A DNA stretch of 61,785 nt, the filler included. It is 6 parts of 6 records of this genome, joined end to end, with 100 filler letters (N's around TTAATTAATTAA, not from the genome) between each part and the next. Parts side by side here need not be neighbours in the genome. Positions count along the whole stretch, not along the records: positions 48,027 to 54,855 come from DRR723986_7417; 5 more parts are not named here. The stretch is one strand, 5' to 3'. Made by a program: the position numbers and the translations under genes. Below, piece after piece: positions 5,440-59,492 of this stretch. The notes under the pieces are model-generated. The model was given only the letters and a program-made list of their open reading frames with translations. It did not search any database and had not been told where the DNA came from. How positions within the stretch are numbered: position 1 is the stretch's first letter; each line of letters begins with the position of its first letter.

Positions 5440-5539
5440 NNNNNNNNNNNNNNNNNNNNNNNNNNNNNNNNNNNNNNNNNNNNTTAATTAATTAANNNNN
5501 NNNNNNNNNNNNNNNNNNNNNNNNNNNNNNNNNNNNNNN
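5440..5539. other. artificial contig linker
   Basis: N44-TTAATTAATTAA-N44; stops in all six frames. Confidence 0.99.
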
Positions 5540-5745: not shown

Positions 5746-8118
5746 TCAATCCAGCGAGAAGGTGAACTCGAACAACCGGTCAATCGGGTCGAGCGGTTTG
5801 GGATCGCGGTATCGATTGAGGTCTAGCAGGCCCGCCTGAAGGATGTCTTGGTCTTTCAGGGCGGTCTGGATCCGGTCGAAGTCGGTCCAGAACTCCGGGT
5901 CGGTTCTGCGGACGCCAAAACGGTCGACGAGCTTGAGGAAATCATCTTGTGACCTGATCTCCCGAACCGTCTCCACGAAGGCCGGCAGGTGATCCTGTTT
6001 CACCTTGAACATGAAATTCGGATAGCTGCTGAACTGGCCGGGCACGACCGTCACGCTGTCGTTCTGGGGTTCGCGGCGCAGATCCTCGTTGAAGATGAAG
6101 GCAACGTTGCTGTGAGCCATGTCATGCACCAGGGTAAAGACCTGCGTGTCCCGTTCCGTTTCCACGAGCAGAACCGAGATATCAGGCAGGAACTTTGCAT
6201 ATGGCGCAGGTTTCTGGGCAAGCGGGCGTAGTTGCCCGGCAGGCGTGTCACTGGACGCACAGGCATTGCCGGTGCAGCGGTTGATAGGGTCTTGTTCAGC
6301 CCACAGGCCAGCAGGTTCGCGCAGCAGCTCGGTGAGGAATTCCTCCTTGGGATCGCTGGTGGAAAAGGCGATACCCGTCGGAGACCTGGTGTCGAGCGCG
6401 CTTTCCTTCCAGAGATCGACCATGCTGACTAGCGGACCCTGATACCAGCTTTCGTGCATGGGTTTGCGCACTTGTGGTGGCAGGAACGACAGGAAGGTTC
6501 GCTCTCCTTCACGGCGCAGGCTGTCCATATAAAGGCGTGTCGTGAGCTGGTGTTCCACGTTGCCGAAGACATCGAACCCGGCAACGAGATTGTAGTAGAT
6601 CCGCTCGAACAGCGGGAAATCGATTACCCAGGCGGTTTCGGGCACCGCGCCGATGAAGCCTGTCACCACCGAGGCGGAAGAGAAATTACGGTAGACGGTC
6701 AGACGGGCATCGACTTCGGAGCCGTCACCTTGCCAGATGTCACCGTAGTCGGGGCCGCCTTCCGCCAGGAACTTGCGTTCATACCGCCCCTTGCGAAACT
6801 CCTGATACTTGACCGGTCCGAGCGACAGGAAGCCTTCCAGACGCTTGGACAGTTTTCCCTTTGACTGGGCGACCGGCAGTTCGAGGATCGGGGTCGCGGC
6901 TTCCAGGAAGCTCGGGTCGGTGACGGAGAGATCGGCGTCGGGTGTCAGGAAGGAGACCCAGAAACGGTCCTCGATCACGTTCACCGCGACCTGGCCGTAG
7001 CAGACCGGACCACGAATGAAAGAGCGGACAAAATAAAGCGCTTCGTCCAGCAGGAACTGGTAGCGGCTGCGCGCAGGAATGGCGCGGAACGTCGACAGCG
7101 GGTTGCCGCCTGCAGCCGTTGAATAGGGCGGCTGGCTCGCAATCTCCCAGTCGCTTTTCAGGAACAGGTCTTCATAGCGCTTCAGGCGTTTGGGGCCGAT
7201 CTCATAGACCATGTGCTCCTTGTGCAGGATGGTGCCGTCAATCGGGATGAGTCTGTAATGAAAGGCGCCACCTGGATCGTCAAAGGGTCGGCGCGAGGCA
7301 ATCTCATCTGGAGGCGACCCGGTCGCGGTTCTGGAACGGATTATGCGGAAGAAGCGGTTCTGGTCATCGCCTTCCAGGTGCAGATGGGCCAGGAACAGAT
7401 GTTCATAGATATAGCGCGCGACAAGTTTCGACCGTTTGTCGCCGCGGTTGAAGAACGTTTCGACGGTGTGCACCGACTGTTCGACACTCTGTGGCAATCC
7501 TTTGCCGGCGTCCGGTGCAGGTGCCCCATCCCTGGCCCAGGACAGCAGGGTCTCGTAGTCGCCATCTGCAAGCGGCGCCATGGCAAAGGGCATGCCGCCC
7601 TGCGGGTGTTCCTCGAGGTAGTCCTTCACCTTGCCAGGCATGGCGCAGGTGTTTGCACGCAGCGTCGAAATGTCGATGTCGTCAGGAAGCGGCGCTCCGA
7701 GCTTGAACGAATTCTTGCGGCCGGCCAGCAGCAGTTGTTCCAGAACGGATGGTCCGTCCTGTGCACCGACAACGTCGAAGAAACCCTTGGCGCGCCAGCC
7801 CGGAACAGACTTTGCGTCGATCCCCAGGCGTGTCATCGGAGCATCTTCCAGACGCGAGGAATCGTAGACTTTCTGCTTGCTCGCTCCGCGCATCCAGCCC
7901 GCGGCGGATGACAGCTTGAGCTGACAAGGTGCGTCATAGCAGCCGTGGCAGACGACGCAGCGCTTGTTGAGGACATCGAGAGCTGATGTATCCTCCTGCG
8001 CCGATGCAGCGCCGGCACAGCAAATCAGAAGTATGGCGCGAAACGCCTGTTTCAGGATCCGAGGCCAGAGAGCCTGAAGGCGGCCGGCCGCAATCATGCC
8101 AGAGGCATCAACCTTCAT
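5746..8118 (-). CDS. cti: fatty acid cis/trans isomerase (periplasmic c-type heme protein)
   Basis: Signal peptide, RCVVCHGCYDAPCQLKLSS (CxxCH), YIYEHLFLAHL, FIRGPVCYGQ, YYNLVAGFDVFGN, GLLDLNRY; start uncertain. Confidence 0.9.
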   Translation of the reverse strand: MKVDASGMIAAGRLQALWPRILKQAFRAILLICCAGAASAQEDTSALDVLNKRCVVCHGCYDAPCQLKLSSAAGWMRGASKQKVYDSSRLEDAPMTRLGIDAKSVPGWRAKGFFDVVGAQDGPSVLEQLLLAGRKNSFKLGAPLPDDIDISTLRANTCAMPGKVKDYLEEHPQGGMPFAMAPLADGDYETLLSWARDGAPAPDAGKGLPQSVEQSVHTVETFFNRGDKRSKLVARYIYEHLFLAHLHLEGDDQNRFFRIIRSRTATGSPPDEIASRRPFDDPGGAFHYRLIPIDGTILHKEHMVYEIGPKRLKRYEDLFLKSDWEIASQPPYSTAAGGNPLSTFRAIPARSRYQFLLDEALYFVRSFIRGPVCYGQVAVNVIEDRFWVSFLTPDADLSVTDPSFLEAATPILELPVAQSKGKLSKRLEGFLSLGPVKYQEFRKGRYERKFLAEGGPDYGDIWQGDGSEVDARLTVYRNFSSASVVTGFIGAVPETAWVIDFPLFERIYYNLVAGFDVFGNVEHQLTTRLYMDSLRREGERTFLSFLPPQVRKPMHESWYQGPLVSMVDLWKESALDTRSPTGIAFSTSDPKEEFLTELLREPAGLWAEQDPINRCTGNACASSDTPAGQLRPLAQKPAPYAKFLPDISVLLVETERDTQVFTLVHDMAHSNVAFIFNEDLRREPQNDSVTVVPGQFSSYPNFMFKVKQDHLPAFVETVREIRSQDDFLKLVDRFGVRRTDPEFWTDFDRIQTALKDQDILQAGLLDLNRYRDPKPLDPIDRLFEFTFSLD

Positions 8119-9867: not shown

Positions 9868-11190
9868 ATGCCGCAGAGCCGTACAGAAGCGCGCCGGACG
9901 ATCGGCAGTTACTGGGAAGCCAGTGTTCCGCAGGTCAAGCTGGACCGGCAGCTCATCGGCAACGCGCTTTTCGACGTGGCGATTATCGGCGCCGGGTTCG
10001 CCGGGCTGAGCGCTGCGCTACGGCTCGCGCAGGCAGGCGTTTCCGTGTGCGTTCTGGAAGCGGAACACGTTGGTTACGGCGCCTCGGGCCGCAACGGCGG
10101 TTTTTGTTGCCTGGGTGGTACCAAGCTCGACGAGCGCCGCCTCATCAAGAAATTCGGCCTCGAGGAAGCGCGCCGTTTCGTTGCCTATCAGGTCGCGGGC
10201 GTCAATCTGGTTGCCCAGAGGCTCGACAGCTGGGGTGTTGACGCCGACCGCCATTCCAATGGGGAAATCTATCTTGCCCACCGGCGGAAGGATTACGCCG
10301 GCTTTCAGGCGGAAGCAGCGTTCCTGAAGGAGAACTTCGGTATCAAGGCCCAGGTGCTTTCCAAGACGGACCTGGACGCGGAAGGCTATGGCGGGCCGAC
10401 ATTCCACGGCGGACTGCAGGTACCCTACGGCTTTGCACTCAATCCGATGGCCTATGTCCAGGCTCTGGCGGATCAGGTGCGCCGAGCCGGCGGCAAGATC
10501 TTCGGCAAGTCGCCGGTGACAGGGATGACCCGGGACAATGACCGCTGGCAACTGGAGACCGAACACGGCTTCATTCGGGCCCGGAAGGTTGTCCTGGCGG
10601 GCAATGGCTATGCACGCGAGGATGCGCCCAAATGGTTGCACGGGCGTACGCTGCCGGTCATGTCGTCAATCCTGGTGACCCGCCCCCTGAGCGAGGGTGA
10701 ACTCGCCGCACAGGGCTGGACCTCCGACACCATGGCTGCCGACACTCGTAACCTTTTGCATTATTTCCGCCTGTTGCCCGACCGGCGGTTCCTGTTCGGA
10801 ACGCGGGGCGGCATCTTCGAAAATGCCCAGTCGCTCGCGGCGATGTACAAGCGTGCAAGGTCGGATTTCGACGAGATGTTTCCGGCCTGGGCGGGCATTG
10901 AGGCCGAACACAGCTGGTATGGACATGTGTGCCTGGCGCGAAATCTGACCCCCTTCGTTGGGGAAGTGCCCGGTCTCGGCGGCGTCTATGCCGCAATGGG
11001 GTGGCATGGCAGCGGCATAGCAATGGCATCGATTTCGGGGGAGAAGGTCGCCGGTTTGATCCTCGGCAAGCTTCAGCCGGAAGATCTGCCGGTTGCCCTG
11101 CGCCGGCCTTTTGCAAGGTTTCCCCTGCCGTCACTGCGTAAACTCTATCTTCAGGGCGCTTACTGGTGGTACGGCTGGCAGGACAGGTAA
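9868..11190 (+). CDS. FAD-dependent oxidoreductase (DAO/PuuB family paralog)
   Basis: GAGFAGLS, GASGRNGGFC, GWHGSG; 1 nt after the previous gene. Confidence 0.85.
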   Translation: MPQSRTEARRTIGSYWEASVPQVKLDRQLIGNALFDVAIIGAGFAGLSAALRLAQAGVSVCVLEAEHVGYGASGRNGGFCCLGGTKLDERRLIKKFGLEEARRFVAYQVAGVNLVAQRLDSWGVDADRHSNGEIYLAHRRKDYAGFQAEAAFLKENFGIKAQVLSKTDLDAEGYGGPTFHGGLQVPYGFALNPMAYVQALADQVRRAGGKIFGKSPVTGMTRDNDRWQLETEHGFIRARKVVLAGNGYAREDAPKWLHGRTLPVMSSILVTRPLSEGELAAQGWTSDTMAADTRNLLHYFRLLPDRRFLFGTRGGIFENAQSLAAMYKRARSDFDEMFPAWAGIEAEHSWYGHVCLARNLTPFVGEVPGLGGVYAAMGWHGSGIAMASISGEKVAGLILGKLQPEDLPVALRRPFARFPLPSLRKLYLQGAYWWYGWQDR

Positions 11191-11241
11191 ACCGCAGATC
11201 TGCATTCGCCATGATCCGGGACCATTGAAGACAGAAATCGG

Positions 11242-11874
11242 ATGCTTATGACTGATACCGTGATCGTTCGGCAGGCCGAGCTTCGAGACCTGGAAGCCGT
11301 TTACGATATCTGCCTGAAAACCGGCCAGGCCGGGCGCGACGCGACGGATCTTTATTCTGACCCCGCATTGATCGGCCATATCTACGCAGGGCCCTATGTG
11401 GCTTTGAAAGGTCCCATCAGCTTTGTCGCTGAAGATGATGTCGGCGTGTTCGGTTATGCCGTCGGCGTCAGCGATACACGGGCTTTCGAGCGCGAACTGG
11501 AGCGGGAATGGTGGCCGACTTTGCGGGAACGTTACCCGGAACCGGTGCAGCAGGAAACCGTGCAGTCAGCCGATGATCAGCGGATCCGCACGATCCACAA
11601 TCCGTCGCCCGTGCCACAGGCCGTCATCGATGAATATCCGGCGCATATTCACATGAACCTCTTGCCGCGTGCGCGCGGGAGGGGAGTTGGTACCAGGCTG
11701 CTGGACGCCTGGATTGCCGCTGCAAAACTGAAGGGTGTCTCGGCCGTTCATGCCGGGGTGAGCGCTGCCAACGAAGCCGGGCTCGCTTTCTGGACAGCAC
11801 GGGAGTTCCATCCGGTTCTGACAGTCAGCAACAGCGGATCTCATGGCACCATCTGGTGCGGACGAAGCTTGTAG
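11242..11874 (+). CDS. GNAT family N-acetyltransferase
   Basis: ICLKTG, YAGPY, YPAHIHMNLLPRARGRGVG. Confidence 0.85.
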   Translation: MLMTDTVIVRQAELRDLEAVYDICLKTGQAGRDATDLYSDPALIGHIYAGPYVALKGPISFVAEDDVGVFGYAVGVSDTRAFERELEREWWPTLRERYPEPVQQETVQSADDQRIRTIHNPSPVPQAVIDEYPAHIHMNLLPRARGRGVGTRLLDAWIAAAKLKGVSAVHAGVSAANEAGLAFWTAREFHPVLTVSNSGSHGTIWCGRSL

Positions 11875-11943
11875 TCGCCACGGGCCAACAAGGCCTTAGC
11901 TCCGCATAGTTCGCACTGAATGTTGTGGTCACGGGAGAGCGGA

Positions 11944-12489
11944 ATGCCTGCAACCACGAAAACGGAATTGCTCGCCGCAAGCGAGAGCGAGTTTTCAAAG
12001 CTGCAAACGCTCCTTGATGACCTGCCCGCGATGCTGCGTCTTGAAAAGGATGCGGACGGCATATCGCCAAAGGATATCGTCGGTCACCGGGCTCACTGGA
12101 TAGACCTGTTTCTGGGCTGGTACCGGGACGGCCAGGCCGGCAGACCGGTCTGGTTTCCGGCCAAAGGCTACAAGTGGAACGAGACGCCCAGATACAATGC
12201 CGACTTGCGGCAAAAGCAATCCGGTCTTTCCTGGCGATCGGTGCGATCCCTTCTGGAGGGAAACCACGCCGAACTGCTTGCCCTCGTGGAAAGTCTGGAG
12301 AATGACGAACTCTACGGCGAACCGATGAAAGGCTCCAACAACAAGTGGACGACGGGACGCTGGGCGGAAGCTGCCGGTCCAAGCCATTACTGGTCGGCTT
12401 CGAAATATCTTCGCCAACGTCTTTCTCAGTTTCAGGAGGAAAGAGATCGGCGCAATTCCGATGTGAGGGATCAGTCCGGGTCGATCTGA
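11944..12489 (+). CDS. ClbS/DfsB family (DUF1706) four-helix-bundle protein
   Basis: RBS GGAGAG; PATTKTELL, KDIVGHRAHW, PAKGYKWN, AGPSHY. Confidence 0.8.
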   Translation: MPATTKTELLAASESEFSKLQTLLDDLPAMLRLEKDADGISPKDIVGHRAHWIDLFLGWYRDGQAGRPVWFPAKGYKWNETPRYNADLRQKQSGLSWRSVRSLLEGNHAELLALVESLENDELYGEPMKGSNNKWTTGRWAEAAGPSHYWSASKYLRQRLSQFQEERDRRNSDVRDQSGSI

Positions 12490-13187
12490 GCCTTGCGTCT
12501 GACAACGGCTACGTTGACCTCCCGCCATATCTCGAAACCCAGCTTGCGGTAGAGGGCGATTGCTCCGTGATTGTCCGCATAGGCGTGAAGGAACGGAATG
12601 TCGCCGCGGCTCCTGATGACTTCAGTCACATGAAGAGAGAGCTCGGATGCCAGGCCTCTGCCTCGGAAATCGGGATGAGTGCAGATCCCGCTCACTTCCG
12701 TATAGCCGTCGAGGTTGATCCTGCTACCCGCCATTGCAGCCAGACGGCCGTCCAGCCTGATGCCGAAGAAAGTGCCCAGCTCCGGCGTGCGAGCGGTGAA
12801 CGGACCCGGTTTTGTAAGCGTTGCAAGCTCGACCATCTCCGGGACATCGGTTTCGTCCAGCTGCACGATTGAAGTCGATCGGGATGGGCCTGCTGACGGG
12901 GAAACTTCGACCATGAGAACACCCAGCGCGGTGATCTCTGCCTCAAGTTCATGGGGCAGGGCGATGTCGTCCGCCTGCAGTATGAAAGCCCGGTCGTCAC
13001 CCGGTTGAATCAGTTCCGCCAGCGCGGCCAGAGCTTCGGGCGAGTTGTTCGCCGCTGCCGCAAAGGGGGAGATGGCCGGATCGAAACGGCGGGCAAGGTC
13101 GCCCCCCTGGCTGAATTGCGCATGCCGGGAAGTCAGGGCTGACCAGACAACCCGCTTCAGAAGGCTGTCCCGGCTCGGTTCATTCAT
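12471..13187 (-). CDS. GNAT family acetyltransferase (FR47-like)
   Basis: TKPGPF, EVSGICTHPDFRGRGLA, PFLHAYADNHGAIALYRKLGF; start overlaps upstream stop. Confidence 0.85.
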   Translation of the reverse strand: MNEPSRDSLLKRVVWSALTSRHAQFSQGGDLARRFDPAISPFAAAANNSPEALAALAELIQPGDDRAFILQADDIALPHELEAEITALGVLMVEVSPSAGPSRSTSIVQLDETDVPEMVELATLTKPGPFTARTPELGTFFGIRLDGRLAAMAGSRINLDGYTEVSGICTHPDFRGRGLASELSLHVTEVIRSRGDIPFLHAYADNHGAIALYRKLGFEIWREVNVAVVRRKAQIDPD

Positions 13188-13500
13188 AACTGCGTGCATC
13201 TTCGAGCTCATAGTGTTGTGAAATCAGATCCCATCGCTTCAACACGTCCCGGGCGGCATCGGGCACATAACAGCGCTCGTAATCCGGGCCTTGAAACGCG
13301 ATGATGTCGTCAAGCGAGCGGAAACTCATGATGGTGATGAACTCCACCTCGGTTTCCAGGTTCCTTCGAAGGACCTCGATGCCGAGATAGCCGGGAATGG
13401 CTTTCGCCTCGATGCCCGGAATGACCTGTGTCGTGAGAACATGGGCATAGGTGTCGGCCATGCCGGGGTCCGTCCAGCCATGCCAGATGCGCTTGATCAT
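13180..13500 (-). CDS. antibiotic biosynthesis monooxygenase-like (dimeric alpha/beta barrel) protein
   Basis: MIKRIWHGWT, IPGYLG, FQGPDYERCYVP; ATGA overlap with MarR gene. Confidence 0.7.
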   Translation of the reverse strand: MIKRIWHGWTDPGMADTYAHVLTTQVIPGIEAKAIPGYLGIEVLRRNLETEVEFITIMSFRSLDDIIAFQGPDYERCYVPDAARDVLKRWDLISQHYELEDARSYE

Positions 13501-14027
13501 CGTTCAAGCTCTGGGGGCGTTTGCAGAGAGTTCCAGTCCTGCAACGGCCTGTCCTTGCAGCGGACGGAAAGCGGCCTCGTGCAAAGGGCATCCTCCAGAC
13601 CTGCAAGCTGGTCAAGCAAAGGACCTTCCAGACTGTTGCAGGCATCGGCAACGGCCAGTGTGATCGCGGGCCAGAGCGTTTCTTTCAGATGGGCGACGAG
13701 GGCTACTCCCTTGTCGGTCAGGCCGATTGTCGTCACGCGACGGTCCTGTTGCGAGGCAACGGATTCAACCAGTCCATCCGACTTCATCTTGTTGATCGTT
13801 CTGGTAACGCCCGGTTGGCTCTGGCCAAGGGTCTTCGCCAGATCGCCGATACTCAGCGGGCCTTGCCGGTCGAGTGCGGCAAGAACAGGGTTGTGCGGCG
13901 TCGGCAGACTGGTGTCGGCAAGCTCGGCCGCAACGATCTGCGTTTGTGCCTGCAGCATTTCCCCGATCCGTTTCAGCCGGCTGCCCAGGGTGGCATAGCC
14001 AAGCGCGCGGACGACATCTTCGCTCAT
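13497..14027 (-). CDS. MarR family transcriptional regulator
   Basis: LGSRLKRIGE, HTH LSIGDLAKTLGQSQPGVTR, DRRVTTIGLTDKG wing. Confidence 0.9.
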   Translation of the reverse strand: MSEDVVRALGYATLGSRLKRIGEMLQAQTQIVAAELADTSLPTPHNPVLAALDRQGPLSIGDLAKTLGQSQPGVTRTINKMKSDGLVESVASQQDRRVTTIGLTDKGVALVAHLKETLWPAITLAVADACNSLEGPLLDQLAGLEDALCTRPLSVRCKDRPLQDWNSLQTPPELER

Positions 14028-14037
14028 GGGTCACTCC

Positions 14038-14073
14038 ATTTACATAACTTGATATATAACTAGTTATGTAAAT
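14038..14073. promoter_or_regulatory. putative MarR autoregulatory operator
   Basis: Perfect 12-bp inverted repeat ATTTACATAACT-N12-AGTTATGTAAAT, overlapping palindrome ATAACTAGTTAT (14056-14067), 10 nt upstream of the marR start. Confidence 0.7.
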
Positions 14074-14133
14074 TCGCAAGGCCTGGTGGGTGAAGTAGTT
14101 GGAGACTGATCCGAGGCTGAGATGAGGAAAGTC

Positions 14134-14169
14134 AAAAACGTCGCCCCACCAGTGGCACTGGCGGGGCGA
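14134..14169 (-). terminator. intrinsic terminator after dnaJ/cbpA
   Basis: GC-rich hairpin 14141-14169 followed on the minus strand by a U-tract. Confidence 0.6.
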
Positions 14170-14200
14170 GGTGACGGTCAACAGTTGACGAGGGGGCCGC

Positions 14201-15178
14201 CTAGTCGAATTCCGGTCCGCGTGCGCGGTACGGAGTGATTTCCTTCCAGGCCCGCATCAGCGTGTCCAACTCGTCGTCGCCATGCGGCGGCATTACGATC
14301 TGCAGCTTGACCAGAAGGTCGCCATGACCACCGGTCTTGGTCGGAAGGCCCTTGCCCTTCAACCGCATGGACTTGCCGCTGGAGGCGTTGGCCGGAATGG
14401 TCAGGTTGACAGCACCGGACAGGGTCGGCGTACGCACTTTTGCGCCCAGAACAGCTTCATAAAGTGTCAGAGGCAGGTCGAGGTGGAGGTCGGATCCCTT
14501 CACTTCGAAAAGCTTGTGAGGCTTGAAACGGATCTCGACCAGGGCGTCGCCTGCAGGACCGCCGTTTTCCCCGGGGTGCCCCTGGCCCTTGAGCCGGATC
14601 TTTTCGCCTTCGACCACCCCCTTGGGCAGGGTAACATTCACCGTCTTGCCGCTTGGAAGCGTTACCTGGGTCTTGCCGGAGTTGACGATGTCCTCCAGCG
14701 AGGCGCGGGCGACGATTTCCGCATTGGCGCCTTTTGTCTTGGGCGGCGCTTTCGCACGGGCTCCGCCGCCGAAACCTGCACCGGGTCCAGCGCCTGCACC
14801 TGCGCCGGCGCGTGCACGGCCACCACCGAAACTGCCGAAAATGTCGTTCAGAATATCGTCGAAACTGCCGCCGCCACCGGATGTCTTCTGGGTGCGTGCA
14901 CCGCCGAAGTCTTCATATCCGGAAAAGCCGTCAAAACCATGCGCCTGATAGCGCTGCTTGCCCTCCGCATCGATTTCTCCGCGGTCGAACTTGGCACGTT
15001 TTTCCTTGTCGCCGACAATTTCATAGGCCTGATTTGCTTCGGAAAAACGCTGTGCGGCCGTCGGATCATCCTTGTTCTGATCCGGATGGTATTTTTTGGC
15101 CAGCTTCCGAAAGGCCTTCTTGATTTCGCTCTCGCTGGCAGATTTTGCCACCCCGAGAACGCTATAGGGATCACGCAT
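14201..15178 (-). CDS. cbpA: DnaJ class B (CbpA-like) chaperone
   Basis: [13 protein letters not shown] motif, G/F-rich linker, DnaJ_C domain, no zinc finger; symbol tentative. Confidence 0.9.
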
Positions 15179-28856: not shown

Positions 28857-28956
28857 NNNNNNNNNNNNNNNNNNNNNNNNNNNNNNNNNNNNNNNNNNNN
28901 TTAATTAATTAANNNNNNNNNNNNNNNNNNNNNNNNNNNNNNNNNNNNNNNNNNNN
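28857..28956. other. artificial contig linker
   Basis: N44-TTAATTAATTAA-N44. Confidence 0.99.
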
Positions 28957-37412: not shown

Positions 37413-37512
37413 NNNNNNNNNNNNNNNNNNNNNNNNNNNNNNNNNNNNNNNNNNNNTTAATTAATTAANNNNNNNNNNNNNNNNNNNNNNNNNNNNNNNN
37501 NNNNNNNNNNNN
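37413..37512. other. artificial contig linker
   Basis: N44-TTAATTAATTAA-N44. Confidence 0.99.
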
Positions 37513-46630: not shown

Positions 46631-47900
<1,270 letters not shown>

Positions 47901-47926: not shown

Positions 47927-48026
47927 NNNNNNNNNNNNNNNNNNNNNNNNNNNNNNNNNNNNNNNNNNNNTTAATTAATTAANNNNNNNNNNNNNNNNNN
48001 NNNNNNNNNNNNNNNNNNNNNNNNNN
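47927..48026. other. artificial contig linker
   Basis: N44-TTAATTAATTAA-N44. Confidence 0.99.
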
Positions 48027-48575
<549 letters not shown>

Positions 48576-48625
48576 TACATCGGCTTGATTTTCTTGTTTG
48601 TCGTTTAGACAGAAGCCAGAATGTT

Positions 48626-48660
48626 ATCCCACCCTGCTACGCAGGGTGGGATTTTTTTTT
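48626..48660 (+). terminator. intrinsic terminator after gap
   Basis: ATCCCACCCTGC-TAC-GCAGGGTGGGAT followed by a T-run. Confidence 0.9.
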
Positions 48661-48890
48661 GCTTGGTCTTTCAATGACAGCATTCAGTTAGCAAGAAATC
48701 CACCTGAAAAGCCGTAATTGTGGTACTGAAAGCCCTAATTACACTGTAAAAGAGTGACTTGCATTGTATACGCAAGCATGCATATTTTGCCAACAATTGC
48801 AGTAGATTGTAGTGGTAAAACACTACCTAAAATAGTACTTCGTACTTACTATAAGCACTAAACATTTTCCAACATTATGGAGCATTGACT

Positions 48891-49088
48891 ATGAATGACT
48901 TAGATCAGCTCCTTCGTCAGGTTGAAGTGGTTTCACCTGAGGAATTTACTGAGCTTGTAAGGTCTTCGCCAAACACTATCGCTGAATCCACATTTGTGCC
49001 GCCAGATTTAGAAAGTGATGGGTGGGGGCATTTTGAGATTAAGAAGACCTTCAACGTCGTACCAGGGCTGATGGAACCTCATGAGTAA
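48891..49088 (+). CDS. small acidic hypothetical protein (65 aa)
   Basis: GGAG 8 nt before ATG; SPEEF...FVPPDL...WGHFEI; stop overlaps the next start (ATGAGTAA). Confidence 0.7.
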   Translation: MNDLDQLLRQVEVVSPEEFTELVRSSPNTIAESTFVPPDLESDGWGHFEIKKTFNVVPGLMEPHE

Positions 49089-49545
49089 AGATAAAGCAGT
49101 CGAAAAAATCAAGCCTGCTCCCAGTGATTCATCCAAACTAGAAAACAACAGCAAACTAGATGAAGGCTTGGACAGGCTTTTCTCTGTGCTAGAGCAAGAC
49201 AGCAAAATTCGCCTGAAGCAAATCGAAATCGACGAAAAACGGATAAAAACCCGCGAGCGAGAAATTGCCTCACATGAAAAGATTGCCACTAATGCCATTG
49301 ACGCTAAACTCAAAGACAACGACTCTTCACGTGTGGCAAAGAAAAACTTTGTAAAGATGGTTCTCAATTATGCGATGGTAGCATTCGTGACATTGATAGC
49401 CTTGTTTGGTGCCCTGGCCTTAAACGGCAAGTCGGAACTAGTTGAGAAGATCATTACGTACTTGGCATTATTGGCAGGTGGTGGTGGAATAACGTCTATG
49501 ATTTCAAAGTTGAGAGGGAATGCTACAAAATCTTCAGAAACATGA
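49081..49545 (+). CDS. coiled-coil + two-TM membrane protein (DUF2335-like architecture)
   Basis: Charged helical N-half, then TM1-NGK-TM2 ending in LAGGGG and a basic tail. Confidence 0.75.
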   Translation: MSKDKAVEKIKPAPSDSSKLENNSKLDEGLDRLFSVLEQDSKIRLKQIEIDEKRIKTREREIASHEKIATNAIDAKLKDNDSSRVAKKNFVKMVLNYAMVAFVTLIALFGALALNGKSELVEKIITYLALLAGGGGITSMISKLRGNATKSSET

Positions 49546-49952
49546 CGAGAGTAAAGCAACCGGCATCTCAAAGCGATTCAAAATCGGGCCAATTACTCAC
49601 CATATGAAAACTCATAGGCTTCACTATTTCCAAGCCATGTTGATCGACTGAATCAAGTTTTTACCTTTTAACCTCAAAGTACTGCCGTTTCAGTTAATTG
49701 GCATGCTCCCGAAATCATCGGGCCACCTGCTATTAAACTTTCGCAAGAGATCGCTTTTGCCATGCCAATCGGCGTACACAAACATTAGCAACAATAACAG
49801 CTGGAGTTTTTCCACATTCAACCAGCGACAAGAAAAATAGCAAGCCTCAATTTTTCTAGTGCAACTCAACACTTTTCCCGAAATTTGCAGGCGCGGCTGC
49901 AAAACTTCGCCGCAAACTCCAGCACTTCATATCGAAATCCGCACAAGCCAAC

Positions 49953-51149
49953 ATGATCAGATCCATTGCTGACCTTGACGTCAAAGACAAACGAGTCCTG
50001 ATTCGCGTAGACTTTAATGTTCCAGTCGCCGACGACGGAACGATCAGCGATGACACACGTGTGCGTGCCACACTGCCCACCATCAACGCTATTCGCCAGG
50101 CCGGTGGAATTGTTGTGCTGATGTCACACATGGGCCGCCCCAAAGGCCAGCGCAAGCCTGAATTCTCACTGCGCATAGTCGCAGAACACCTGCAGACATT
50201 ACTCGGGCAGCCAGTCCAATTTGCTGAAGACTGTATCGGTGAACCAGCCCAAAACGCAATCGCTGCCGCCAAGGGTGGCGATGTTATCCTCCTCGAAAAC
50301 CTGCGCTACCACGCTGCAGAAGAAAAAAATGATCCAGACTTTGCGCGCGCCCTCGCACAGCTCGGCGATGTCTACATCAACGACGCCTTCGGCACGGCAC
50401 ATCGCGCACACGCAAGTACCGCCGGCGTCGCCGCCTTTGTACAGCACAAAGCCGCCGGCATCCTGATCGAACGCGAACTGCAGTTCCTGGGCAATGCTCT
50501 GCAAAATCCCAAAAGACCATTTACGGCCATCCTCGGCGGCGCCAAAATTTCCGGCAAAATCGACGTCATCACGGCGCTCCTCGATAAATGTGACACGATT
50601 CTGATTGGCGGAGCGATGATGTTCACATTCTATAAGGCGCAGGGTCTCGAAATTGGATCGTCAATGCTCGAAGCCGATAAAATTGACCTGGCACTACAAA
50701 CGCTCAAACTAGCCGAAGAAAAAGGCGTCAAGCTGCTCCTGCCATCCGATACTCTCGCTGCGCGCACCTTCGACAACGAGGCCGAACGCGAAACACTCGC
50801 CGTTACAAACATGCAGCCCGGATGGATGGGACTCGACGTTGGACCGCAGACAATCAAAACATTCAGCGATGTGATACAAAACTCGCAGACCGTCGTCTGG
50901 AATGGACCGATGGGAGTGTTTGAGATGAGCAACTTCGCACATGGCACACGTGGCATTGCGGAAGCTATGGCCGCAGCCACGGACGGCGGTGCTACAACAA
51001 TCGTTGGCGGTGGTGACTCCGCTGCCGCAGTCACCCAGTTCGGCCTGGACAGCAAGATGTCTCACATCTCCACCGGCGGTGGGGCTTCGCTCGAATTTCT
51101 GGAAGGCAAAAATCTACCTGGAATCACGGCTCTGGAAGAAACGAGCTGA
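49953..51149 (+). CDS. pgk: phosphoglycerate kinase
   Basis: RVDFNVP, SHMGRP, NDAFGTAHR, WNGPMG, STGGGASLE. Confidence 0.98.
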   Translation: MIRSIADLDVKDKRVLIRVDFNVPVADDGTISDDTRVRATLPTINAIRQAGGIVVLMSHMGRPKGQRKPEFSLRIVAEHLQTLLGQPVQFAEDCIGEPAQNAIAAAKGGDVILLENLRYHAAEEKNDPDFARALAQLGDVYINDAFGTAHRAHASTAGVAAFVQHKAAGILIERELQFLGNALQNPKRPFTAILGGAKISGKIDVITALLDKCDTILIGGAMMFTFYKAQGLEIGSSMLEADKIDLALQTLKLAEEKGVKLLLPSDTLAARTFDNEAERETLAVTNMQPGWMGLDVGPQTIKTFSDVIQNSQTVVWNGPMGVFEMSNFAHGTRGIAEAMAAATDGGATTIVGGGDSAAAVTQFGLDSKMSHISTGGGASLEFLEGKNLPGITALEETS

Positions 51150-51236: not shown

Positions 51237-52187
51237 ATGCAGATCATGCAACAAAACAGTTTCGGCTTCCGCACACCGCGGTTGATGAATGGAATTAAGT
51301 GGCTTCTGATAATAAATGTCGTGGTCTTTTTTATACACCACGTAATTCTGGGTGCAATCACGCTCGAAAGCGGTGCGAACCTGGGAGAGCTATTCGCTGA
51401 GTGGTTTGCCCTTTTCCCGATGCATGCCGACCAATTCCGGGTGTGGCAGTTACTGACGTTTCAGTTCCTGCATACCGGCCCTCTACACATCTTCTTTAAC
51501 CTCCTGGTTATCTGGATGATTGGCACGGCGCTTGAACAGCGCTGGGGAACCCGATACTTCCTCGTCTACTACCTCTTATGCGGCCTGGGTGCCGGTCTTG
51601 GACAGATCACCATATCATCGCTGGCTGGTGAGATATCCCAAACCCTTGGTGCCAGCGGCGGCGTCTTTGGAATCATCGTGGGGTTTGGCCTGACCTTCCC
51701 TAATGAGCGCCTTCTGATTTTCCCATTTTTTGTTCCTGTACGCGCCATCGTATTAATGTGGGTGCTGATTGGCATGGAACTCTTACTGGGACTCTTAACC
51801 AGTGGTGGCGGCGTTTCACACTTCGGCCACCTGGGTGGTGCCGCCATGGGATACTTCCTTATGCGCCAGGGTGCGCGTTTTGGCGTATTTCGCTTCTTTG
51901 ATTCTGCAATAGATACTGTTCGCGACATGTTCACTGGCGGCAAGTCCCGGCCCAAAGCGCCAAGGCAGCAAAGCGGCAGCGGACAGGTCTTCTCGATTAA
52001 TGAGGCGCCGCCCAAAGAGGCAACGCCCAGCTGGTTCCGCACTCAGGCGCGACGTGCCGAGCCCGAAAACACCGAGATCACAGCCGAAGAGATCGACGCG
52101 ATTCTCGAAAAAATTCATGCCGAAGGCAAAGACAATCTCAGCCCCCGCGAACGCCGTATTCTGGAGGAATACAGCAAAAAGTTGTAA
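51237..52187 (+). CDS. rhomboid family intramembrane serine protease with C-terminal helical (DUF6576-like) tail
   Basis: FLH...HIFFN, GASG, HFGHLGG; tail EIDAILEKI...LSPRERRIL. Confidence 0.92.
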   Translation: MQIMQQNSFGFRTPRLMNGIKWLLIINVVVFFIHHVILGAITLESGANLGELFAEWFALFPMHADQFRVWQLLTFQFLHTGPLHIFFNLLVIWMIGTALEQRWGTRYFLVYYLLCGLGAGLGQITISSLAGEISQTLGASGGVFGIIVGFGLTFPNERLLIFPFFVPVRAIVLMWVLIGMELLLGLLTSGGGVSHFGHLGGAAMGYFLMRQGARFGVFRFFDSAIDTVRDMFTGGKSRPKAPRQQSGSGQVFSINEAPPKEATPSWFRTQARRAEPENTEITAEEIDAILEKIHAEGKDNLSPRERRILEEYSKKL

Positions 52188-52223: not shown

Positions 52224-52251
52224 TGTAACCATTCTTTGCATTGCCCTGTCT
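52224..52251 (+). promoter_or_regulatory. putative ECF autoregulatory promoter
   Basis: TGTAAC-N17-TGTCT, resembling the ECF AAC...(C/T)GT pattern, about 50 nt upstream of the sigma gene. Confidence 0.5.
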
Positions 52252-52300
52252 CCTTCAGCAACACACCCGCACAGCGGCAATTAATGACGCAAACTTTACG

Positions 52301-52873
52301 ATGCTCATGAAAGCACGAACACATAGCGACACAGACCTAAGCAAGACCGTGGATGGTTTCCGTAAAGGAAGCGCTGAAGCATTCCAGGTTTTGTACAAGC
52401 GCTACCAAAACCGCGTGTATCGCTTTTGTGTTCGAATGATGAGTAGCGAAGTAGCCGGCAAAGATGCTTTTCAGGAAACTTTCATGCGCATGTACGAACA
52501 TCGCGCTGATTTTAGGGGCACAAACTTTCCTGCCTGGCTCTTTACAATTGCCCGCAATGTATGTCTCAACCTCTTGCGTAAACAGAAAGCATTCGATTCA
52601 TTCGAAGAAGATATTCACGGCAAATTGCTGTCAACTAATCGCGTTGACAATAGTGACGTCCTCCTGCGTAACAGCATCGATGACGCCATCAAACAATTGC
52701 CGTTAAAGTTACGAGAGGCGCTCATTCTCCGCGAATACGAAGAATACTCCTATAAGGAAATCGCGGAAATAACCGGCATTGAGTTATCTCTGGCGAAGGT
52801 GCGAGTCCATCGAGCACGATTGATTCTTCGCAAGATTCTCAGCCCCATTGTCCAAGAGCGTTATGAAATCTGA
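52301..52873 (+). CDS. ECF RNA polymerase sigma factor
   Basis: AF..LY.RY, DAFQETF, FPAWLFTIARN, SYKEIAEITG, KVRVHRAR. Confidence 0.95.
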   Translation: MLMKARTHSDTDLSKTVDGFRKGSAEAFQVLYKRYQNRVYRFCVRMMSSEVAGKDAFQETFMRMYEHRADFRGTNFPAWLFTIARNVCLNLLRKQKAFDSFEEDIHGKLLSTNRVDNSDVLLRNSIDDAIKQLPLKLREALILREYEEYSYKEIAEITGIELSLAKVRVHRARLILRKILSPIVQERYEI

Positions 52874-54506
52874 AGTCGACGTTCTCCTGACCAAATACCT
52901 GGATGGTGACCTGACCGCCGCTGAAGACCGCGACCTGCGGGACATGCTGTCAGTCAATCCGGATGCAAAACTCGCCTTCGACGAAAGCGTGGCAATTCAC
53001 CATGCTATTCGCAGCGATGCCGAGTCCCTTGAAGCCCCTGCCGAGCTGGTCGAACAAACCGAAGAAGCCATACTCATGCGCATCTTCGGCGAAGCTCCCG
53101 CGGCAACTGCTACCGCCAGTGCTCCAATCATCAGCGACATTCAACGCAAAGCCTTTAGCGCACTCCTGCTGCTACTGGCCTTTATGATGCCGTCTGCAAT
53201 TGGTGACAATCCCTTTGCACAGGGCCTAGAAAATTCCATTCTGCTTGCCTCGGCCGATGCCGCAGTGAGCGAGCGTGCGTCGGTCGAGGTGCAGAATGCT
53301 GCTCTGGTTCAGTCCTGGACGCAGGCCAACACCAATCGAATCGCCCGAAGCCTGGCTACGCTGGAGCAACCAATATCACAGACCCTGGCTTCAACCCCAC
53401 GGTATACGGAAACTCCTCTTTCAGCAAGCGCAGATAATACTGTGCCTGCTCAAACGGAGTCTGCTGTAGAGCTCACACCTCCAACAGACGGAGCCGATCA
53501 ACCGCCGTATTATCAAACCGCACACTGGGAAACAAACTCCATTGCCAACGCAAGTGAGTGGAGCCCTGCTAGTGCATCCGAGCCTCTGGCCGAAGATCTG
53601 GTCTACGGTGATGGCGCATTTGATGCAAACTCTCAGGATATCATCGCTGGTGACGCAGCCGGTGCCGGACCAGCCACTTCACCCAGCAGTCGCATGAAGG
53701 ACGTGCTCGCTGAAGGTTCTGGTGGTATCGTTGCGCTTACGCCGGGAATCTCACCCAGTATTGGCGGCGAGATTTTCCTCTCCGGAACCCTCGGTAGTGA
53801 TCTGCTTGCACAAAATTCCAGCGACGAAGCCACTGCGCTTTCGCTTTCGACTCTTGGCCTGGCTTATAGCGTCAGCCCCAATGGTCGCGTGGGCCTCGAA
53901 CTTGGAATGATCAACTTCTCCTACCCCTATCAAACGCTCGTCTGGAGTGAACCTGCAGTCGGCATCAACAATGATGTTAGGTCCGGCAGTAGTGTTCCAC
54001 GCTCTCAGCGTCCTATCAAAACGCAGCAGGGCTCAACCCGCTCGCCGATTATTAAACAAGACAGCGATGGTGGTACGGAAGAAGATCCTATGCATGGCCC
54101 TGGACAAGAGTCCGGCGGCAGTGAAGGTGGCGCGGAGACTGGCGAGGGCGGCACTGAATCCGGTGGTTCGGGCGGCTTCCTCAATCCCAATTTGGGTCAG
54201 GAACGCACGGCCTACTCGGTTAGCGAGATTCGCAACAAAACTACCGTTTGGGGTGGCATCTTTTACGAGCACGAAATTCCAATCCGCGAGCGCATCTCCT
54301 TCATCGGCCGCATTGGCGCTGGTGGATCAAACGAAGGTATGCTCGGTTATCTGCGCGCCTCCGGTGCATACGAAATGACCAACGATCTGTCGTTATTGAT
54401 TGGCTTCGACTCACGTGCCATGCTGCTCAGCGTATTCGAATACAAGAATGTTAACAAGCTGGACATGAGCTTCACATTCACAATGGGACTTAACGTTCGC
54501 CTCTAA
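52863..54506 (+). CDS. putative dual-membrane-spanning anti-sigma factor (anti-sigma domain, TM, disordered tether, C-terminal beta-barrel)
   Basis: Overlaps the sigma stop; LLTKYLDGDLT..E anti-sigma N-terminus; TM ALLLLLAFMM; long A/S/T/P/E-rich linker; amphipathic strands ending FTFTMGLNVRL. Confidence 0.75.
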   Translation: MKSEVDVLLTKYLDGDLTAAEDRDLRDMLSVNPDAKLAFDESVAIHHAIRSDAESLEAPAELVEQTEEAILMRIFGEAPAATATASAPIISDIQRKAFSALLLLLAFMMPSAIGDNPFAQGLENSILLASADAAVSERASVEVQNAALVQSWTQANTNRIARSLATLEQPISQTLASTPRYTETPLSASADNTVPAQTESAVELTPPTDGADQPPYYQTAHWETNSIANASEWSPASASEPLAEDLVYGDGAFDANSQDIIAGDAAGAGPATSPSSRMKDVLAEGSGGIVALTPGISPSIGGEIFLSGTLGSDLLAQNSSDEATALSLSTLGLAYSVSPNGRVGLELGMINFSYPYQTLVWSEPAVGINNDVRSGSSVPRSQRPIKTQQGSTRSPIIKQDSDGGTEEDPMHGPGQESGGSEGGAETGEGGTESGGSGGFLNPNLGQERTAYSVSEIRNKTTVWGGIFYEHEIPIRERISFIGRIGAGGSNEGMLGYLRASGAYEMTNDLSLLIGFDSRAMLLSVFEYKNVNKLDMSFTFTMGLNVRL

Positions 54507-54532
54507 GCTCAGCTTCACAAATGATTTACGCG

Positions 54533-54567
54533 CAGAAGCCGTTCCAAACGAACGGCTTTTGTGTTTT
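54533..54567 (+). terminator. intrinsic terminator after anti-sigma gene
   Basis: CAGAAGCCGTTC-CAAAC-GAACGGCTTTTG then TGTTTT. Confidence 0.75.
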
Positions 54568-54828: not shown

Positions 54829-54855
54829 AGGATCCAGCCCTAAGGGCTGGATCCT
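54829..54855. repeat. perfect palindrome at contig end (REP-like)
   Basis: AGGATCCAGCCCT-A-AGGGCTGGATCCT, 13-bp arms; contig stops at its last base. Confidence 0.6.
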
Positions 54856-54955
54856 NNNNNNNNNNNNNNNNNNNNNNNNNNNNNNNNNNNNNNNNNNNNT
54901 TAATTAATTAANNNNNNNNNNNNNNNNNNNNNNNNNNNNNNNNNNNNNNNNNNNN
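54856..54955. other. artificial contig linker
   Basis: N44-TTAATTAATTAA-N44. Confidence 0.99.
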
Positions 54956-55418: not shown

Positions 55419-56831
55419 ATGACGACTTACAGAATTCCCGCACAGGTGATCCGCAGCAATATCTACACCGGCACCCTTGTTGGGGTCGCACCTACAGAGC
55501 TGGTGATCGTGGCACAGGACAACGAAACTGGATTCTCATATTCGGTCCCGACGGATCCATTTGGCAACCCGACCGATATCACATTCGACCGCAACGTTTA
55601 TACTGCGACCTATTTTGATGGCACGCGGCAAATCCGCGATGACGACTTTGCAATGGTTGTCGATATCAAATGGGGCGGCAATAACTTCTCCACTCTTTAT
55701 TTGACGCAGGTGATCCTTGGCGGTGAGGTTCATGAGGTGTCGGTGCTGCTTGGTGGGGCCGAGGTGCCACAATTCACCTCCGTTGCGGTTGCAGAAGCCT
55801 GGCTTGGCACTTTTACCGAAGCCGCCATACCGCGCAAAGGGCCGTTCACACCGGGCCAGCATATCCCATTTGATGCCCCAGCCGGTACTCAGGTAACCGA
55901 AGATGACTTTATCGTCGGCTCACCCGGACCTGACCCGATCAGCGCGGGCATTGGAAATGACACGATTGATCCGGGCGCAGGGCACGACACAATTGATGGC
56001 GGTGCGGGGGATGACACGGTCCTCTATACCGGAGATCAAAGCAGCTACACCCTGACCCTGTCGCCTGAGGCCACGACGATCACCAATCGCCTGTCCTCCG
56101 GCACGGATGTGGACAACTTGATTGATGTGGAGTTTCTGGATTTTGGAACAGAAATGGACGTCTTTGGCGGCCAACCCATGCATCTGGATATCTTTGACGG
56201 ACCGACCAGCCTGAATGCCGCTGAATTCTCCGAGATTGTTGAGCTTTACGTGGCCTATTTCAACCGCGCACCTGATGCATTGGGGTTGTTCTTCTGGGCT
56301 GGCAAATACGCCGAAGGGCTGAGCATTGCCGAAATGGCCGCGAGCTTTTTCACGCAGCAGGAGACGCAGGAAACATATGCGGATGTGATGGATGACGCAG
56401 GCAACCTCACCAATGTCAGCGCCTTTGTGACCGCCGTTTACCAAAACGTTCTGGGCCGTCAGGCGGATCAGGCCGGCTTTGATTTTTGGGTCAATGTTCT
56501 GGAAACCAGCCCCGACGTGACCCCGCCGAACTTTATCCTTGCGATCATTCAGGGGGCCAAGTTCCCTGCCGATCCTGTGCCGCAATCCTTTGTCGATCAG
56601 GCCTATCTCGAAGACAAAGCCGACATCGGCGCCTATTTCGCGGTGATCAAAGGCATGTCGGAGGTAGGAGATGCCAGCACGGCCATGCAATTGTTTGATG
56701 GCAGCGAAGACAGCCTTCTGGCGGCCAAAAACGCCATTGATGCCTTCCACGTCGCCGCAACAGGGCCTACTGACGGCGCGTTTTTGATGCCTTTGGTGGG
56801 CGTCATTGATGACCCGTTTGCGTTTGTCTGA
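55419..56831 (+). CDS. RTX-like Ca-binding protein with C-terminal DUF4214 domain
   Basis: AGIGNDTI, PGAGHDTI, GGAGDDTV repeats; LYVAYFNRAPD..GL.FW and YQNVLGR.AD.AG..FW; no signal peptide. Confidence 0.85.
   Translation: MTTYRIPAQVIRSNIYTGTLVGVAPTELVIVAQDNETGFSYSVPTDPFGNPTDITFDRNVYTATYFDGTRQIRDDDFAMVVDIKWGGNNFSTLYLTQVILGGEVHEVSVLLGGAEVPQFTSVAVAEAWLGTFTEAAIPRKGPFTPGQHIPFDAPAGTQVTEDDFIVGSPGPDPISAGIGNDTIDPGAGHDTIDGGAGDDTVLYTGDQSSYTLTLSPEATTITNRLSSGTDVDNLIDVEFLDFGTEMDVFGGQPMHLDIFDGPTSLNAAEFSEIVELYVAYFNRAPDALGLFFWAGKYAEGLSIAEMAASFFTQQETQETYADVMDDAGNLTNVSAFVTAVYQNVLGRQADQAGFDFWVNVLETSPDVTPPNFILAIIQGAKFPADPVPQSFVDQAYLEDKADIGAYFAVIKGMSEVGDASTAMQLFDGSEDSLLAAKNAIDAFHVAATGPTDGAFLMPLVGVIDDPFAFV

Positions 56832-57954: not shown

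Positions 57955-59492
<1,538 letters not shown>

Follow-up and report, generated by a model that had tools for sequence, protein, structure and literature searches.

Introduction

RseA and RsiW are single-pass class I anti-sigma factors that are released by regulated intramembrane proteolysis, and, to our knowledge, anti-sigma factors that reach both membranes of the cell envelope have so far been studied only in gut Bacteroides. Among the latter, Dma1 is described as beginning with an N-terminal anti-sigma region, after which come one helix, an extended disordered stretch and a barrel of eight strands with the annotation OMP_b-brl_2, and it is paired with Das1, a sigma factor of the extracytoplasmic function (ECF) group ECF21 (Pardue et al. 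2024, PMC10927553). The same study reports that full-length, dual-tagged Dma1 was detected in both membranes of Bacteroides, and states that Dma proteins are confined to Bacteroidota. Here we analyze a window of 61,785 nucleotides (the whole stretch of DNA under study, 61.8 kb), in which an ECF sigma gene is overlapped by a gene encoding a 547-amino acid (aa) protein with a similar succession of parts, and compare this gene pair with the systems described so far.

That the anti-sigma factors of ECF21 carry an outer-membrane barrel was noted by 2021 (Casas-Pastor et al. 2021, PMC7826278). According to that work, in some ECF21 subgroups the barrel forms a fusion with the sigma factor or is encoded by a gene of its own, the genes for the anti-sigma factor and the barrel being decoupled in ECF21s9, s16, and s28, and in the parts of its supplement covered here a fused barrel is found in no ECF group besides ECF21. 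The group is described there as 99.62% Bacteroidetes, with a predicted promoter of GCAACC (−35) and CGTCT (−10).

The sigma gene is overlapped by a gene for a predicted envelope-spanning protein

Pfam analysis of the upstream gene product gave matches to Sigma70_r2 (E-value 1.3e-18) and Sigma70_r4_2 (2e-15) and none to region 3, indicating an ECF sigma factor. An initial annotation of the window had described a second gene overlapping the stop codon of the sigma gene, and the two genes indeed overlap by 11 nt (Table 1). The second gene product begins with MKSEVDVLLTKYLDGDLT and ends with FTFTMGLNVRL. In three homologous loci, L001, L002, and L003, the corresponding gene also lies directly downstream of the sigma gene, and judging from the coordinates of the open reading frames (ORFs) the 11-nt overlap is identical in L001 and L003. 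We estimate at about 75% the probability that the two genes form a self-regulated ECF sigma/anti-sigma operon, in which one polypeptide, encoded by the second gene, is built to extend from the cytoplasm as far as the outer membrane.

Close homologues of the 547-aa protein are rare. A set of 5.8 billion proteins contained only four of them (best E-value 9e-184; identities 60%, 59%, 73% over a half-length alignment, and 37%), and a search with a 100-sequence profile returned only the same four. With a five-sequence profile, 272 out of 1.84 billion cluster representatives were found at E ≤ 1e-3; of these, 197 remained at a threshold of 1e-10 and 35 at 1e-30. The best 150 of the 272 representatives were, with few exceptions, 409-552 aa in size and matched in two or three stretches, namely the N-terminus and the halves of the C-terminal domain. 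The N-terminal block was present in all 152 stored family proteins, the first barrel block in 142, and the second in 130. As all three blocks were carried by 126 of the 152, a gene fusion or assembly artefact was rejected. These 126 proteins, which passed strict coordinates for all three blocks, and the window protein made up a deep alignment of 127 sequences. The 26 proteins that were excluded comprised four fragments of 78-235 aa, matching the N-terminal part only, and 22 proteins with blocks just under the cut-offs. The Pfam scan covered 100 of the 127 alignment members, window protein included, and the NCBIfam scan 30 members.

The structure of the protein was modeled using AlphaFold2 with the 127-sequence alignment. 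The model contains four confident N-terminal helices (residues 2-14, 19-31, 33-55, and 60-76), with a block predicted local distance difference test (pLDDT) score of 83-96 for residues 1-70 and 72 for residues 71-80, in line with the anti-sigma-like N-terminus of the initial annotation. Weak matches of the family to anti-sigma models fall on this domain: zf-HC2 in 57/100 and RseA_N in 6/100 members (Pfam), and the "anti-sigma factor" model NF052375, below threshold, in 7/30 (NCBIfam).

The single internal hydrophobic helix that had been noted was also found, the only hydropathy peak of the protein being at residues 97-115 (Kyte-Doolittle 1.74 over 19 residues), while AlphaFold2 placed a membrane helix at 90-108 with a block pLDDT of about 72-74. 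In the 45 family members examined, the strongest hydrophobic peak begins at residue 78-100. An N-terminal signal peptide was rejected, as the first 30 residues are acidic and the hydrophobic helix begins only after 95 residues, C-terminal to a folded acidic domain.

The helix is followed by 189 residues of low pLDDT, consistent with the low-complexity linker of roughly 190 aa initially described. Its block pLDDT is mostly 42-59 (residues 110-300), rising to 70 at one predicted helix (142-164), and its composition is 17% A, 12% S, 8% P, 8% T, 7% G, 7% E, and 6% D. In the family, the length of the linker ranges from 106 to 228 (median 162.5).

For the C-terminal part, the initial annotation had expected an eight-stranded barrel, and eight strands were modeled, with a block pLDDT of mostly 88-97; their columns alternate between hydrophobic and polar residues across the family alignment. 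Foldseek returned 43 matches in the Protein Data Bank (PDB) at E ≤ 1e-3. All among the matches listed are outer-membrane or designed transmembrane beta-barrels, and a soluble beta-sandwich was therefore rejected for this domain. OmpA, NspA, and Ail, which are eight-stranded, matched best; their TM-scores, normalised to the target, were 0.46-0.64 (OmpA transmembrane domain 1qjp 0.64, 9fzd 0.59, and 9fzc 0.56; NspA 1p4t 0.60; Ail 3qra 0.49). Like the small barrels OmpA (1bxw, 1qjp), NspA (1p4t), Ail/OmpX (3qra), and OmpW (2f1t), the domain has eight strands and a C-terminal GxxΦxΦ beta-signal. In contrast to these proteins, with which its sequence identity is only 5-12%, it forms the end of a predicted inner-membrane-anchored regulator and has no cleavable N-terminal signal peptide of its own.

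The C-terminus of the window protein ends in G-L-N-V-R-L, a beta-signal of the type recognized by the barrel assembly machinery (BAM), the family consensus being S-x-S-L-I-Y-G-L-Q-F-K-F. In the 127-row alignment, the last column contains F (82 rows), L (34), I (6), or M (3), F and L together making up 116/127. G542, at position −5, is kept in 125 of the 126 rows with a residue there, and position 541 is Y in 109 rows. Of the 152 stored family proteins, 92 end in F and 37 in L.

Between strands beta3 and beta4 the model contains a disordered insertion with a block pLDDT of 44-53, a G content of 22%, and a net charge of −6. It measures 66-88 aa in the five-member subfamily versus a median of 23.5 aa (range 11-53) in the 122 other members, and within the subfamily its sequence varies while its composition does not. 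By the topology of OmpA and other eight-stranded barrels, the insertion would be the outward-facing surface loop L2. The initial annotation had not noted this insertion, nor the make-up of the window from six contigs or the rhomboid gene upstream of the sigma gene.

The identity of the window protein to the family members P0001-P0003 and P0004 differs between its regions. It amounts to 84% and 59%, respectively, for the anti-sigma domain and 86-92% and 51-69% for the two halves of the barrel, as against 37-38% and 17% for the linker and 37-42% and 20% for the insertion, as would be expected if a spacer connected a functional head with a functional tail.

The sigma factor and its putative promoter

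The start of the sigma gene was set at ATG 52307 on the basis of 188-aa homologues, an alternative start being possible at 52301. In NCBIfam, the sigma70-ECF superfamily model was above the cut-off for the sigma protein, and no equivalog or subfamily model was reached. The nearest PDB sequences are SigW, SigH/AlgU-type, and SigE. The identity of the sigma factor to its copies in L001, L002, and L003 is 94%, 94%, and 80%, compared with 73%, 73%, and 65% for PGK and 85%, 84%, and 79% for GAPDH of the same loci. Alternative sigma factors are not commonly conserved above the level of PGK and GAPDH, and this finding suggests that the present one has a core function in the envelope.

The ECF-like promoter previously proposed upstream of the sigma gene, TGTAAC-N17-TGTCT, was recovered, the strict motif having its sole match in the window there (chance expectation 0.07). 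One copy each is present in L001, L002, and L003, some 55-80 nt upstream of the start codon of the sigma gene, and the motif is invariant (4/4 loci) inside an otherwise variable spacer. A sigma-70 promoter scan gave 0 sites. GTAACC agrees with the published ECF21 −35 element GCAACC at five of six positions, and TGTCT with the −10 element CGTCT at four of five (PMC7826278); the autoregulatory promoter predicted here is similar, though not identical, to that of ECF21.

Behind the second gene, RNA folding indicated an intrinsic-terminator-like hairpin (−23.7 kcal/mol, z-score −4.19), as good a fold being reached by 1 of 200 shuffled sequences. A simple consensus terminator scan did not list this hairpin. 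With a promoter upstream and a terminator after the second gene, the sigma gene and the gene downstream of it probably form a two-gene operon, which would be self-induced.

Table 1. Coordinates of the sigma/anti-sigma locus, its neighbours and the contig joins in the window.
Feature	Position	Strand	Remarks
gap, C-terminal part	48057-48575	+	
pgk	49953-51149	+	
Rhomboid intramembrane serine protease with DUF6576 tail	51237-52187	+	Pfam Rhomboid E 2e-28, DUF6576 E 9e-11
Putative autoregulated ECF promoter, TGTAACC-N16-TGTCT (= TGTAAC-N17-TGTCT)	52224-52251	+	−35 GTAACC, −10 TGTCT
ECF sigma factor, 188 aa	52307-52873	+	Pfam and homologue lengths; stop codon 52871-52873
Anti-sigma-like gene, 547 aa	52863-54506	+	ATG 52863; overlaps sigma gene by 11 nt
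N-terminal cytoplasmic anti-sigma-like domain (predicted), residues 1-80	52863-53102	+	Four-helix fold, free of Cys; net charge −12
Single transmembrane helix / signal anchor (predicted), residues 96-114	53148-53204	+	R94-K95 before, PSAIG↓D after
Periplasmic disordered tether (predicted), residues 115-303, 189 aa	53205-53771	+	Net charge −18
Barrel strands beta1-beta3 (predicted), residues 304-362	53772-53948	+	Strands 304-315, 327-336, 341-362; block pLDDT up to 97
Disordered insertion (predicted) between beta3 and beta4, residues 363-448, 86 aa	53949-54206	+	Gly/Ser/Glu-rich
Barrel strands beta4-beta8 (predicted), residues 449-547	54207-54503	+	Strands 449-473, 478-489, 493-504, 509-522, 532-546; block pLDDT mostly 91-97
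Intrinsic-terminator-like hairpin and U run, operon end	54530-54567	+	RNA folding
Linkers between contigs	5440-5539, 28857-28956, 37413-37512, 47927-48026, 54856-54955		Artificial joins

Proposed mechanism and points against it

Residues 1-80, a Cys-free helical domain, would sequester the sigma factor in the cytoplasm; we infer this binding from the modeled fold and the weak family matches. Residues 96-114, the sole export signal, would hold the protein in the inner membrane as an N-in signal anchor, a topology suggested by their position and hydrophobicity. The approximately 190 disordered acidic residues that follow, with their low model confidence, biased composition, and poor conservation, would cross the periplasm. 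Residues 304-547 would be located in the outer membrane as an OmpA/NspA-like eight-stranded barrel, to which the modeled fold and the BAM beta-signal point, with the acidic, Gly-rich loop of the barrel facing outward. By analogy with Dma1/Das1, if the outer membrane or the spacing of the envelope is disturbed, the tether and/or the membrane helix might be cut. The freed sigma factor would then, as in the regulated proteolysis of other anti-sigma factors, transcribe TGTAACC-N16-TGTCT promoters, its own included.

Several observations weigh against this interpretation. The window protein matched zf-HC2 only at an E-value of 0.064, through its first helix alone (profile positions 3-25 of 35), and with 0 Cys among its 547 residues it lacks the zinc motif HxxxCxxC. 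Sequence and profile searches of the PDB, using the five-sequence and the 127-sequence alignments, gave no anti-sigma match (best E-value 0.6). PSAIG↓D behind the helix (arrow, possible cleavage point) satisfies the −3/−1 rule of signal peptidase I, and a cut here might part the protein into its two halves. AlphaFold2 with a five-sequence alignment reached a mean pLDDT of only 33.7 and gave no barrel, and in the deep model the closure of the barrel by beta1-beta8 pairing is deduced from the Foldseek superpositions only. At E ≤ 0.1, OMP_b-brl and OMP_b-brl_2 matched 0/100 family members, and the outer-membrane-barrel models of Pfam gave nothing in the 100 members except one match to Toluene_X (E-value 0.024). 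For the sigma protein, the NCBIfam scores of the SigM subfamily (111 vs 148 bits) and of Sig70_bacteroi1 (TIGR02985; 100 vs 126) stayed below the cut-offs. A regulon search with strict and relaxed motifs in about 110 kb (the window and L001-L003) found only the operon's own promoter.

Comparison with described systems and alternative explanations

As in the published description of Dma1, the gene follows that of an ECF sigma factor, and its product is predicted to have a single inner-membrane helix, a long disordered region, and an eight-stranded barrel. The sizes are also close, Dma1 being about 55 kDa and the present protein 547 aa. The Dma1/Das1-type domain order claimed by the initial annotation therefore stands as far as the architecture is concerned, but it does not extend to the OMP_b-brl_2 annotation of Dma1. 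As none of the 100 members scanned matched this model, any homology to Dma1 is conjectural. Further differences from Dma1 are the 86-aa acidic, Gly-rich insertion of the barrel, the rhomboid gene as a conserved upstream neighbour, with no NigD-like neighbour seen, and the lineage, which is Kapabacteria-like and not Bacteroidia. With ECF21 the system shares an anti-sigma-like gene at position +1, whose product is predicted to have one transmembrane helix fused to an outer-membrane barrel. Thus, the Kapabacteria-type system adds to a design already described in 2021 and 2024, and is not a new category.

The RseA/RsiW type is similar in having a helical cytoplasmic N-terminal domain followed by one membrane helix, in the weak RseA_N and zf-HC2 matches of the family, and in the presumed logic of sequestration followed by proteolytic release. 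It differs in that the window protein has no zinc ligands, and that a tether and an outer-membrane barrel replace the periplasmic sensor domain. Also unlike this type, no site-2 protease gene was seen on the 6.8-kb contig, and a rhomboid gene is adjacent.

If the interpretation is correct, the locus extends the design to Kapabacteria-like organisms, which are little-studied, deep-branching relatives. The family would also widen the comparative set for asking how such proteins are exported and assembled, which of their parts are essential (the anti-sigma domain, helix, barrel, and beta-signal are conserved, while the tether and loop vary freely), and which protease frees the sigma factor, the rhomboid neighbour being a concrete candidate.

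The family might be independent of Dma1 and Reo, having arisen convergently when an anti-sigma domain was fused to a small outer-membrane barrel, and not as a divergent orthologue of the Bacteroidia proteins. The missing OMP_b-brl and OMP_b-brl_2 matches agree with such an origin, as does the finding of only 272 representatives by the five-sequence profile, the best 150 of which are all of the same unannotated type. No NCBIfam model covers the Kapabacteria-type family (none of the 30 members scanned was above any cut-off), and a rhomboid neighbour is not named in the ECF21 gene-context list (PMC7826278). By these database comparisons, the family of 272 representatives is separate and unannotated, and recognized by neither Pfam nor NCBIfam. 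On the other hand, the closeness of the promoter to that of ECF21 (GTAACC vs GCAACC, TGTCT vs CGTCT) and a lineage within or beside Bacteroidota argue against convergence. Furthermore, the language-model neighbours of the family member P0010 include Bacteroidota clusters with OMP_b-brl_2 (score 0.92), which we take as a lead only. Overall, we consider an independent origin rather unlikely.

A second alternative concerns the integrity of the protein. Signal peptidase I could routinely cut after the helix, at PSAIG↓D, leaving an inner-membrane anti-sigma stub and a separate small outer-membrane protein, or the cut could be the regulated site-1 step. The initial claim that the helix is not a cleaved signal peptide is right in that the helix is not N-terminal, and it leaves room for cleavage at this site. 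The segment resembles a signal peptide, with a basic n-region (R94, K95), a 13-residue hydrophobic core, and Pro, Ala, and Gly at −5, −3, and −1, respectively, and at the same signal peptidase-like site PRAIG↓N is conserved in P0001-P0003. Decoupled anti-sigma and barrel genes exist in the ECF21 subgroups named above (PMC7826278), and for the anti-sigma factors RsiP and RsiV the site-1 cut has been reported to be made by signal peptidase (PMC8844934, PMC4183432). However, a motif of the PSAIG↓D type is absent in P0004 and in the seven members of the wider family that were examined, in which the helices are longer and end in ...EI(S/G)D, and Dma1 carrying both tags was found at full length in Bacteroides membranes (PMC10927553). 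We regard such cleavage, the main rival of the proposed mechanism, as improbable.

Finally, the second gene might not be that of an anti-sigma factor but encode an outer-membrane protein that is unusually extended at its N-terminus, its place beside the sigma gene being a coincidence. We regard this as very improbable, although no anti-sigma model of Pfam or NCBIfam was reached at a curated cut-off. The overlap (L001, L003) and the gene order (4/4 loci) are kept even where the proteins are only 37% identical, and conservation of the N-terminal domain equals that of the barrel. Moreover, three different anti-sigma models repeatedly gave weak matches located precisely at the N-terminus, and an ordinary outer-membrane protein would be expected to start with a signal peptide and not with a 95-residue acidic helical domain.

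A rhomboid protease gene as upstream neighbour

The rhomboid gene is located directly upstream of the sigma gene in 4/4 loci, and its product is 57%, 57%, and 48% identical to those of L001, L002, and L003. The catalytic motifs are intact, with HIFFN (HxxxN) at 84, GASG at 138, and H198. The rhomboid is therefore a candidate for the protease that would release the sigma factor from its anti-sigma factor, albeit one with a small chance of being right: the four loci represent about three independent lineages only, and the gene is part of a single conserved housekeeping block. A rhomboid-cleaved anti-sigma factor has been suggested in the ECF254 text of PMC7826278. A literature search found no experimentally demonstrated case in the titles or beginnings of abstracts of the papers listed, and no protease is named in the passages covered of a 2025 preprint on Dma2. 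Equally doubtful is the wider proposal that the family is a separate branch, possibly an independent invention, in which release is brought about by the upstream rhomboid, in place of the usual site-2 metalloprotease, or by signal peptidase at PSAIG↓D as the site-1 protease. If true, rhomboid-driven release of an ECF sigma factor would link an outer-membrane tether to intramembrane proteolysis within one rhomboid-sigma-anti-sigma block.

Lineage of the contig

The gene order gap-pgk-rhomboid-sigma-anti-sigma is kept in L001, L002, and L003. Of these, L003 belongs to a metagenome-assembled genome (MAG) of Candidatus Kapaibacterium, a genus placed by NCBI in Bacteroidota, class Eximiradiia. Among the best 120 homologues of the sigma factor, eight carry an organism name: Kapabacteria/Kapaibacterium in four cases, and Ignavibacteria, Bacteroidota, the Fibrobacteres-Chlorobi-Bacteroidetes (FCB) group, and Chloroflexota in one each. 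The Atlas clusters nearest to P0010 (0.99 and 0.96) are labelled Candidatus Kapaibacteriota, and an Atlas search with the barrel part gave scores of 0.90-0.91; both are leads only. Taken together, the taxon labels point to a Kapabacteria-like contig, i.e., to deep-branching Bacteroidota.

The FCB-like genome of the initial annotation thus holds for the contig at 48027-54855, but not for the other contigs of the window, which carry proteobacteria-type genes. Its non-Bacteroides lineage likewise applies insofar as the contig is Kapabacteria-like, while NCBI now puts Kapabacteria inside Bacteroidota. Under the NCBI placement the system occurs in Bacteroidota, and where Kapabacteria are ranked as a separate phylum it does not; the published restriction of the Dma proteins to Bacteroidota is stretched, not broken. 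A literature search found no paper joining Kapabacteria and anti-sigma.

L001 is an unclassified MAG, and L002, a 394-kb contig, is labelled as an uncultured Hyphomicrobiales bacterium. An S8 peptidase of 1191 aa, in which a type IX secretion sorting domain is matched at a borderline level, is encoded by L002 at 10855-14430 and also by L001 at 11507-15082. As this type IX secretion subtilase and the Kapabacteria-like operon are on the same contig, the Hyphomicrobiales label of L002 is probably wrong.

Genomic setting

The window consists of six contigs joined by N44-TTAATTAATTAA-N44 linkers, and adjacency across the joins is artificial. The sigma/anti-sigma pair is on the fifth contig (6,829 bp), every gene of which is on the + strand and whose GC content is 0.51, compared with 0.56-0.63 for the other five. 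Its tetranucleotide correlation r is 0.58-0.73 with the window contigs and 0.74-0.79 with L001-L003. The proteobacteria-type genes of the other contigs are found at 46797-47900, 5746-8118, 55419-56831, and 57955-59271, and encode a CcrM-like N6_N4 methylase with RAMA, a fatty-acid cis/trans isomerase, an RTX and DUF4214 protein, and a Rieske oxygenase. Because of these genes, our conclusions on the organism are drawn from the fifth contig alone, which may be a binning contaminant among the contigs of the window.

The spacer between gap and pgk (48576-49952) has a low GC content (0.45 for the block 48001-50000) and contains two small ORFs, at 48885-49088 and 49081-49545, the second with a hydrophobic tail. 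Counterparts of both are absent from L001-L003, and at the position of this spacer L001 has an XhoI-type restriction-modification pair; the spacer looks like an insertion hot spot. At the extreme end of the contig, just before the N-linker, there is a perfect 12-bp inverted repeat with a 3-nt loop (54829-54855), which may be a repeat element or a hairpin that broke the assembly.

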